From the sequence record OQ850288: a DNA stretch of 64,000 nucleotides. One strand, written 5' to 3'. Source of the DNA: Escherichia phage vB_EcoM_ULIM9. Position 1 is the stretch's first letter. Each line of letters begins with the position of its first letter. The position numbers and the translations under genes were made by a program. The notes below the pieces were generated by a model, which did not search any database, was not told where the DNA came from, and saw only the letters and a program-made list of their open reading frames with translations. Positions 50,331-50,558 of the stretch are shown here, piece after piece.

Positions 50331-50558
50331 TGGTATGCCTCTTATAAGACCTCTTAAAAGGCTTTTAAGATAAAAGATAGATATCCAGAAAGATATCTGT
50401 TTAAATAGCCTTTTTAGAGGAACCTTTTAAGTAATCTTCTAAGTATTTATAAGCCTACACCTTGTCAAGTACTTTGTCAACAACTTTTTTAACTTGCAAT
50501 AGTTCTTGACTTGTTGTATGGATTACTGTACCATCTTACTTAAAGCTGTAGGTCTGCC

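Follow-up and report, generated by a model that had tools for sequence, protein, structure and literature searches.

A putative promoter-plus-leader cassette at the two divergent junctions and at a third site of a Felix O1-type phage genome

Repeated intergenic units that combine a host-type promoter with a stem-loop and occur in several copies per genome are reportedly found in T4-type phages, where they are called PeSL (promoter-early stem-loop) cassettes. Strong sigma70 promoters with UP elements, such as rrnB P1 of E. coli and the early promoters of T5 and T4, place an A-tract before a consensus -35 hexamer and have a spacer of 17-18 bp, and the leader and intercistronic hairpins of T7 and lambda that are processed by RNase III form an interrupted duplex of approximately 20-25 bp with an internal loop in untranslated parts of early or middle transcripts. 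Several co-regulated phage promoters activated by lambda CII or P22 C1 carry a short direct repeat starting with TTG that straddles the -35 and the spacer, given as TTGC-N6-TTGC around the -35 in the motif quoted in PMC4837284. For Felix O1, a classical phage of Salmonella typing and biocontrol that is also the type of a large group (approximately 300 sequenced relatives were matched in this study), the genome paper (Whichard et al. 2010, PMC3185647) described four transcription units, called the late-gene block starting at a divergent junction 'odd', reported no polymerase-modifying genes and stated that the temporal regulation is unknown. The transcriptional programme of Felix O1 is essentially uncharacterised, and no transcriptome or transcription start site data for Felixounavirus were found in the literature searched.

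We analysed a stretch of 64,000 nucleotides from Escherichia phage vB_EcoM_ULIM9 (record OQ850288; the window), which shares ~98% identity with Salmonella phage Felix O1, with E. coli phage wV8 and with some 250 further Felixounavirus records, and whose orientation is the reverse of that of the Felix O1 record. Positions 50340-50530 (B) correspond to the junction of Felix O1 ORF40 and ORF41 (genes 40/41) and positions 10440-10640 (A) to that of ORF96, encoding the DNA polymerase, and ORF97 (genes 96/97); these are the sole two divergent junctions of the Felix O1 genome. We consider it rather probable that 50340-50530 is copy B of a promoter-plus-leader cassette of approximately 115 bp, of which this virulent Felix O1-type phage has three copies, all on the minus strand. 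As in the strong sigma70 promoters, an A-tract precedes a consensus -35, the spacer is 17-18 bp, the -10 has A2 and T6, and TGn is present in two of the three copies; in contrast to them, the cassette has a weak -10 (3/6 matches), a second perfect TTGACA within the spacer, and a conserved leader of 60-160 nt that is common to the copies. It also differs from the PeSLs, as its hairpin, which is long and AT-rich, is placed in the leader after the promoter, and as there are only three copies, two of them at divergent junctions.

The initial annotation, made from the letters of the window, had regarded 50340-50530 as the second copy of a control region and 10440-10640 as its partner, which is borne out by two collinear blocks:

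10594-10615 and 50460-50481, both plus strand: 22-mer CCTTGTCAAGTAC[A/T]TTGTCAAC, exact, with only these two occurrences in the 64-kb window
10556-10569 and 50421-50434: 14-mer AACCTTTTAAGTAA, exact matches

Order and orientation of the blocks are identical, and the gap between them is 24 nt in A and 25 nt in B. Pairwise alignment, the check that had been proposed, gave a local score of 51 for the whole intergenic regions of A and B, well above the scores of 1000 dinucleotide shuffles of these AT-rich sequences (21.8 +/- 3.1, maximum 36; z = 9.4). Both regions are AT-rich and rich in TTAAG-like words, which is what a chance likeness between two AT-rich intergenic regions could draw on, but this explanation is refuted by the alignment score, by the absence of any match to the 22-mer in 100 dinucleotide-preserving shuffles with up to three mismatches allowed, by the existence of three collinear copies and by the retention of the module across genera, and its probability is negligible. 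Region 50340-50530 is confirmed as a real, conserved, regulatory intergenic region. Overlooked in the initial annotation were a third copy at ~61136-61255 and the fact that the conserved unit takes the form of a promoter when it is read on the minus strand. The elements of copy B are as follows:

50481..50493, minus strand: UP-element-like A-tract, GTTAAAAAAGTTG, directly upstream of the -35
50475..50480, minus strand: -35 TTGACA (outer box; the 'TTGTCAAC' half of the 22-mer), 17 nt from the -10
50463..50468, minus strand: inner TTGACA (the 'CCTTGTCAAG' half), within the spacer at about -23 to -18
50452..50457, minus strand: -10 TAGGCT, 3/6 to consensus, with T1, A2 and T6 kept
50443..50447, minus strand: predicted transcription start, placed at the usual distance of 6-8 nt downstream of the -10
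50421..50446, minus strand: tandem 12-mers ATACTTAGAAGA and TTACTTAAAAGG (50446-50423), ~+1 to +25 of the predicted leader
50341..50431: long hyphenated palindrome or leader hairpin, with outer arms at 50350-50363 and 50407-50420 and inner arms at 50379-50385 and 50392-50398
50338-50343, minus strand: Shine-Dalgarno sequence AAGAGG of ORF41, ahead of the DUF5681 gene
49959..50330, minus strand: gene of a DUF5681 protein (Pfam PF18932, E = 2e-14; annotated records), Felix O1 ORF41, the first gene served by B

The reverse complement of the 22-mer, GTTGACAA(A/T)GTACTTGACAAGG, holds two perfect TTGACA hexamers, and judged from its sequence the unit reads on the minus strand as a sigma70-type promoter composed of an UP element, TTGACA, a spacer of 17-18 nt and a TAnnnT -10. 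The outer TTGACA is perfect and invariant in 15/15 unique sequences of junction B and in 52/52 unique sequences of all three copies. Hexamers with A2 and T6 are found 17 +/- 1 bp from it in each copy (TAGGCT N17 in B, TAATCT N18 in A, TAACTT N17 in C), and a TGn extended -10 is present in A and C, while the TG of B is one base out of register. With matches to the consensus at just 3/6 positions of the -10 hexamers, the minus-strand sites were not listed by a simple promoter scan. Directly upstream of the -35 are AAAAAAGTT(G) in B and AAAAAAGTG in C, and A has AAAAAGCAAG; we take these A-tracts to resemble the proximal UP subsite, whose consensus is reportedly AAAAAARNR. The same arrangement of TTAAAAAAGnnn and TTGACA is found again at other sigma70-like sites of Felix O1, including those upstream of ORF42 and of the tRNA cluster. 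The late promoters of T4 have a conserved TATAAATA at the -10 and belong to phages with homologues of gp55 and gp33; the TATAAATA of copy B (minus strand, 50451-50444) was rejected as a promoter of this class, as relatives have AATAAAAC or TCTAAATA instead.

A promoter 'P41' of the form TTGACA(N15)TATAGG has been predicted at 21515-21541 of Felix O1 (PMC3185647), on the same strand and at the same locus as module B, and its TTGACA is the outer box of B. However, in that prediction the partner of the -35 is a non-conserved hexamer (TGTAGG in the window), whereas we assign the -10 to TAGGCT. The same study noted one promoter-like sequence across both junctions and no other obviously homologous ones in 40-41 or 96-97 (PMC3185647), and its account of P41 includes neither the matching copies at ORF97 and ORF22 nor the inner box nor the shared leader. 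One GenBank record (ASO1B) annotates minus-strand promoters at both junctions, by pattern match. New with respect to the literature found is that A, B and C are copies of one cassette of ~115 bp, that the inner box is invariant, and that the shared leader is strongly constrained.

The other two copies comprise the following features:

10585..10636, minus strand: promoter of module A, with the A-tract, TTGACA at 10614-10609, the inner TTGACA at 10602-10597, TGt, and TAATCT at 10590-10585
10418..10584, minus strand: leader of module A, down to the start of gene 97 (CDS 9995-10417)
10544-10569, minus strand: tandem 12-mers of module A, with a long palindrome at ~10455-10560
61136..61255, minus strand: module C, the third full copy with its leader hairpin
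within module C, minus strand: the A-tract, TTGACA at 61227-61222, the inner TTGACA at 61214-61209, TGg, and TAACTT at 61204-61199, with a spacer of 17 nt

In module A the spacer is 18 nt, and the -10 is TAATCT or TAGTCT across genera. Module C was found through the unexpectedly high score of 61040-61260 in a control comparison with other AT-rich intergenic regions. It lies between the co-directional minus-strand ORF21 and ORF22 of Felix O1, not at a divergent junction, and is followed by a second, proximal promoter-hairpin unit for ORF22. When the complete 86-kb genome of Felix O1 was searched with an nhmmer profile of A, B and C, exactly three full-length matches were obtained (E-values from 5e-22 to 6e-27), which share one strand; the remaining matches were partial and confined to the UP/-35 part of other predicted promoters. 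Partial matches of the window to the module profile include sites with an A-tract and TTGACA at 48344-48462 and 49940-49966 (minus strand), upstream of the tRNA cluster, which spans 43.6-48.3 kb, and of a Ro-like (DUF2828/DUF7788) RNA-binding gene. A sigma70-like TTGACA-N17-TATGCT (10/12 match) is located on the minus strand at 10322-10350, inside the 5' part of the gene 97 CDS. Between 60100 and 64000, also on the minus strand, at least five copies of a different unit of ~100 bp are found between small early genes; these consist of a sigma70-like promoter (TTGACG or TTGCAA-N17-TAAATT), a GC-rich 5'-UTR hairpin (e.g. GGGGAGGGAATGACCTTCCCC, which has no T-run) and a Shine-Dalgarno sequence, and these shorter units are closer to PeSLs than the A/B/C cassette is.

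For conservation we used ~30 loci per copy from IMG/VR together with annotated records of Suspvirus, Mooglevirus, Hafnia, Yersinia and Erwinia phages, and the footprint was taken from the 52 unique sequences that A, B and C have among Felixouna-, Susp- and Mooglevirus. In this set the inner TTGACA is as invariant as the outer one (52/52), while the 5-7 nt between the boxes are hypervariable; each copy has a constant spacer length, which overall is 17 or 18. The -10 keeps T1, A2 and T6 and varies at positions 3-5 (TAATCT and TAGTCT in A; TAGGCT, TAGCCT, TAAGTT and TAGTGT in B; TAACTT, TAATGT and TAGATT in C), a pattern that, as far as sequences can tell, is the signature of a sigma70 -10 element. 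Hafnia phage Zyzzx shows the same layout at both junctions (TTGACA-17-TACTCT and TTGACA-17-TATTGT, with inner-box periods of 11 and 10 bp), and in the relatives from Yersinia and Erwinia there is just one leftward site, TTGACA-N17-TAAAGT or TACATT. The leader of B is 91.4% and 89.7% identical to those of SUSP2 and Michonne, compared with 81.5% and 79.8% for gene 41; the leader of A is 88.0% and 84.4% identical between genera (SUSP2 and Michonne or other genus), compared with 78.5% and 69.0% for gene 97; and module C is 92.5% identical to that of a Mooglevirus, compared with 68.5% for the downstream CDS, ORF22. These identities indicate that the non-coding modules are under stronger constraint than the neighbouring genes. 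In scans of IMG/VR with double-box patterns of 14 and 16 specified bases, the matches listed were mostly unrelated contigs.

The genes on the plus strand appear to be served by separate conserved promoters, which in A and B would stand back-to-back with the cassette:

50506..50534, plus strand: promoter TTGACT-N17-TACCAT for ORF40-24, from the promoter scan, 97.6-100% identical between genera
50474..50503, plus strand: possible second promoter TTGTCA-N18-(TGc)AATAGT, in which the near-palindromic outer box would supply TTGTCA, from the scan and with weaker evidence
10616..10644, plus strand: promoter TTGCTT-N17-TAATGT for the DNA polymerase (ATG 10675)

The start predicted for the B plus-strand promoter is ~50541, and the first gene begins with ATG 50580. 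At the possible second promoter, TTGCAATA(G/C)T is kept in most sequences of Felixouna-, Susp- and Mooglevirus and varies in two. The hexamers of the A plus-strand promoter are conserved (-10 TAATGT, TAAGGT, TAGGGT or TAGTGT) and its spacer is variable. According to the initial annotation, the shared region was a divergent control region whose blocks have the same orientation with respect to the plus-strand genes downstream. The orientation is indeed the same in both copies, and both sites are divergent junctions with a back-to-back plus-strand promoter, but the layout is that of a minus-strand promoter and not of a symmetric element shared by the two directions; nor is the module specific to divergent junctions, its third copy being situated between two co-directional minus-strand genes. 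A shared block that serves the plus-strand genes is not supported by the plus-strand promoters of A and B, which differ in sequence and in their distance from the block: 25 bp in B, while that of A abuts it. These distances differ by ~24 bp, and the shared block therefore has no common position relative to the plus-strand starts. At junction A the opposing -35 hexamers are 1 bp apart and the leftward UP element overlaps the rightward core promoter, because of which the two promoters should be mutually exclusive by steric competition. In the middle promoters of T4 the -35 is replaced by a MotA box, (a/t)(a/t)TGCTT(t/c)A, with its centre at -30, and MotA and AsiA genes are present. A promoter of this type was rejected, as no MotA box is located at -30 of the minus-strand promoter; the TTGCTT of A serves the opposite promoter as a -35, with a normal spacing of 17 bp, and is not a MotA box. 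With respect to gene starts, a mechanical ORF at 50559-50741 starts at TTG 50559, and homologues as well as a Shine-Dalgarno sequence, AAGGAG (50569-50574), point to ATG 50580. Similarly, the DNA polymerase most likely starts at 10675, not at 10645.

The cassette is of a known kind, a host-type phage promoter with a leader, with one odd feature. An invariant hexamer in the spacer is unexpected for a plain sigma70 promoter, so that something more is involved. The inner TTGACA was rejected as a second -35, as no hexamer with A2 and T6 is found 16-19 nt downstream of it in any copy. Its spacing varies between copies, from 5-7 nt to the -35 and from 4-7 nt to the -10, which makes a phased dimer like PhoB, or a tetramer of the CII type, less likely. 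A PhoB box consists of two 7-bp direct repeats containing TGTCA with a fixed period of 11 bp, and replaces the -35 approximately 10 bp upstream of the -10. A PhoB-type box was rejected, as the two boxes here are spaced at a period of 12 bp in A and B, of 13 bp in C and, in Zyzzx, of 10 and 11 bp, and as the TATAAT of A is not conserved. Promoters activated by lambda CII or P22 C1 were likewise rejected: the repeat is TTGACA, a perfect -35, and not TTGC, its period is a variable 10-13 bp and not a fixed 10 bp, and the -35 is a consensus rather than a poor one. Among the eight junction-adjacent proteins scanned there was no protein of the CII family and just one HTH_3 protein.

This HTH_3 (Cro/CI-type) regulator, encoded on the plus strand at 16745-17074, is the homologue of Felix O1 ORF85. 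It is present in Felixouna-, Susp- and Mooglevirus and gave no tblastn match in the Hafnia, Erwinia or Yersinia relatives; its match to Sigma70_r4 (22.5 bits, with a cut-off of 24.1) is ordinary cross-similarity among HTH domains. The regulator bears on the reading of the initial annotation, in which the direct repeat TTGTCAAG-N4-TTGTCAAC would be the site of a phage or host transcription factor controlling the downstream plus-strand genes, either as a response-regulator box of the PhoB type or as repeats of the lambda CII type near the -35. Such a site would be in keeping with two invariant boxes separated by variable bases, with their location upstream of conserved plus-strand promoters in A and B, with the HTH_3 regulator encoded by the phage, and with the TGTCA core of the boxes, which presumably resembles a Pho-box half-site. 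However, between A and B the boxes shift by ~24 bp relative to the plus-strand promoter, no plus-strand gene lies downstream of copy C, the repeat period ranges from 10 to 13 bp depending on the copy and the genus and is ill-suited to a phased dimer, and other genera do not conserve the TATAAT that A has 8 bp downstream of its boxes. Moreover, the HTH_3 regulator has no homologue detectable by tblastn in Zyzzx, where the double box is kept, and was rejected as the box-binding factor. We regard the factor-site explanation as unlikely. Under the promoter-plus-leader reading, our best guesses for the inner box are an occluding or sigma-region-4-like factor, or an alternative docking of sigma. Somewhat more ambitiously, the three cassettes could form a dedicated regulon, in which a factor recognising the duplicated TTGACA would act with the palindromic leader to time a switch between the back-to-back promoters, with one or more copies possibly acting also as R-loop origins; this factor might be a mimic of sigma region 4, a sigma-appropriation partner, or sigma itself in an alternative docking. 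Such a regulon is a speculative possibility to which we attach a low probability, and if true it would account for how transcription in Felix O1 is controlled in time, which is unknown according to the genome paper.

Downstream of the promoter, the second 12-mer of B contains most of the 14-mer (50421-50434), and equivalent 12-mer blocks are found in A and C at the same distance from the promoter. The 5' arm of the leader palindrome starts in or near the 14-mer. The leader of B folds with -28.4 kcal/mol on the minus strand (z = -3.1 against shuffles) and with -31.2 kcal/mol on the plus strand (z = -3.8); the corresponding z-scores of the A leader are -3.0 and -3.5, and the hairpin of C reaches -17.9 kcal/mol (z = -3.6). 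In the outer arms of B, one double change from C:G to T:A keeps complementarity, and the palindrome of A has two compensatory pairs (A:U to U:A in 6/12 and C:G to U:A in 2/12 sequences). An interrupted duplex in an untranslated leader is reminiscent of the RNase III-processed hairpins of T7 and lambda, but the likeness is structural only, and the pairing is as good on the other strand. In fact, plus-strand folding of the leaders is equal or slightly better, with only two G-U pairs favouring the plus strand in B, and a DNA-level role of the palindromes is possible. No Rfam family was found at either junction, where sub-threshold hairpin-like matches reached 11-21 bits compared with gathering scores of 45-141, and Rfam matches over the whole window were tRNAs only. 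The small ORFs of junction B (24-42 aa) are probably chance ORFs; one overlaps the beginning of gene 41, and the rest are located at the plus-strand gene end.

The symmetry of the leaders also invites an explanation in which the palindromes, together with CTTWWAAG motifs, are DNA operators for a dimeric phage regulator that would either silence the promoters or toggle the back-to-back pairs, the RNA hairpin being incidental. CTTWWAAG, which occurs 41 times in the 64 kb, is clustered in A (4), B (4) and the terminal-repeat region (9 at 59.15-59.56 kb), the non-transcribed strand folds equally well or better, and the near-total invariance of ~100 bp in B fits protein contacts better than a stem alone. 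On the other hand, the inner palindromes differ (ACGTAT/ATACGT and AGCTTTTTAAAAGCT in A, AGATATC/GATATCT in B) and provide no common operator, and in Zyzzx the module is not accompanied by the sole HTH regulator that could be recognised. We consider operators of this kind to be very unlikely as the main function of the leaders.

We favour a promoter-plus-leader cassette that would work as follows. Host RNA polymerase with sigma70 would bind the A-tract as an UP element, the outer TTGACA as the -35, and the weak TAnnnT -10 located 17-18 bp downstream. Its leftward transcripts from B would cover gene 41 (DUF5681), the Ro-like RNA-binding gene and the tRNA cluster, those from A gene 97 and the block for replication and nucleotide metabolism, and those from C ORF22 in the early region. 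The first 25 nt of every transcript would carry the AACCTTTTAAGTAA block, and the leaders would fold into a long AT-rich hairpin, which probably acts at the RNA level, through stabilisation of the 5' end, processing by RNase III or control of the adjacent ribosome-binding site. The inner TTGACA most likely identifies the three promoters as members of a single co-regulated set, by means of a factor that would recognise a -35-like hexamer or as a second docking site for sigma region 4. Semi-quantitative RT-PCR placed ORF41, 42, 96, 97, 98, 99 and 101 in one class with maximal transcription at 25 min, and ORF22 in the 5-min class (PMC3185647). This timing is weakly consistent with a co-regulation of A and B; against a single timing for a cassette regulon is the fact that ORF22, downstream of C, belongs to a different RT-PCR class and has its own proximal promoter. 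The cassette probably co-ordinates three gene blocks, and the layout points to joint expression of the replication block with gene 41, the Ro-like gene and the tRNAs. Located at two junctions and at a third site, it gives concrete predicted start sites. The analysis is useful for annotating and engineering Felix O1-like phages and involves no new principle.

A promoter followed by an AT-rich unwinding element is also the anatomy of replication origins such as oriF and oriG of T4 and the primary origin of T7, and the cassettes might be origins of this kind, at which an R-loop of the transcript in the AT-rich palindromic leader would prime DNA synthesis by a T7-like replisome. This order of elements is found in all three copies, and by itself it is a non-specific feature. 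In line with an origin, a strong promoter is followed by 110-160 bp of AT-rich, highly conserved, palindromic and untranslated sequence, the unit is present in multiple copies, the phage has a DNA polymerase, a primase-helicase and an exonuclease of the T7 type, and the cumulative GC skew has minima at A and B. However, the changes in GC skew are fully explained by the switch in gene orientation, every leader runs up to a Shine-Dalgarno sequence and the start of a gene, for which an ordinary 5' UTR suffices, and the non-coding terminal-repeat region at 58.2-59.8 kb is an equally good origin candidate. An origin function of the cassettes is therefore improbable in our view, about as much so as the operators.

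The stretch from 58200 to 59800 comprises 1.6 kb of non-coding DNA at a convergent junction, with more than 25 TTAACA / CTAACAAG repeats and the 9 CTTWWAAG motifs. The record of Salmonella phage Si3 (NC_041922.1) is linearised inside module B, at the equivalent of window positions 50447-50462; it ends with ...TTGACAAAGTACTTGACAAGG and starts with AAATACTTAG..., and 11 nt (TGTAGGCTTAT) are missing. This break is probably an assembly artefact, because the terminal repeat maps elsewhere, and junction B was rejected as a physical genome end. The 581-bp direct terminal repeat annotated for Felixounavirus Pr103Blw (PMC8303462) corresponds to ~58810-59388 of the window, and the physical genome ends therefore lie within 58200-59800.
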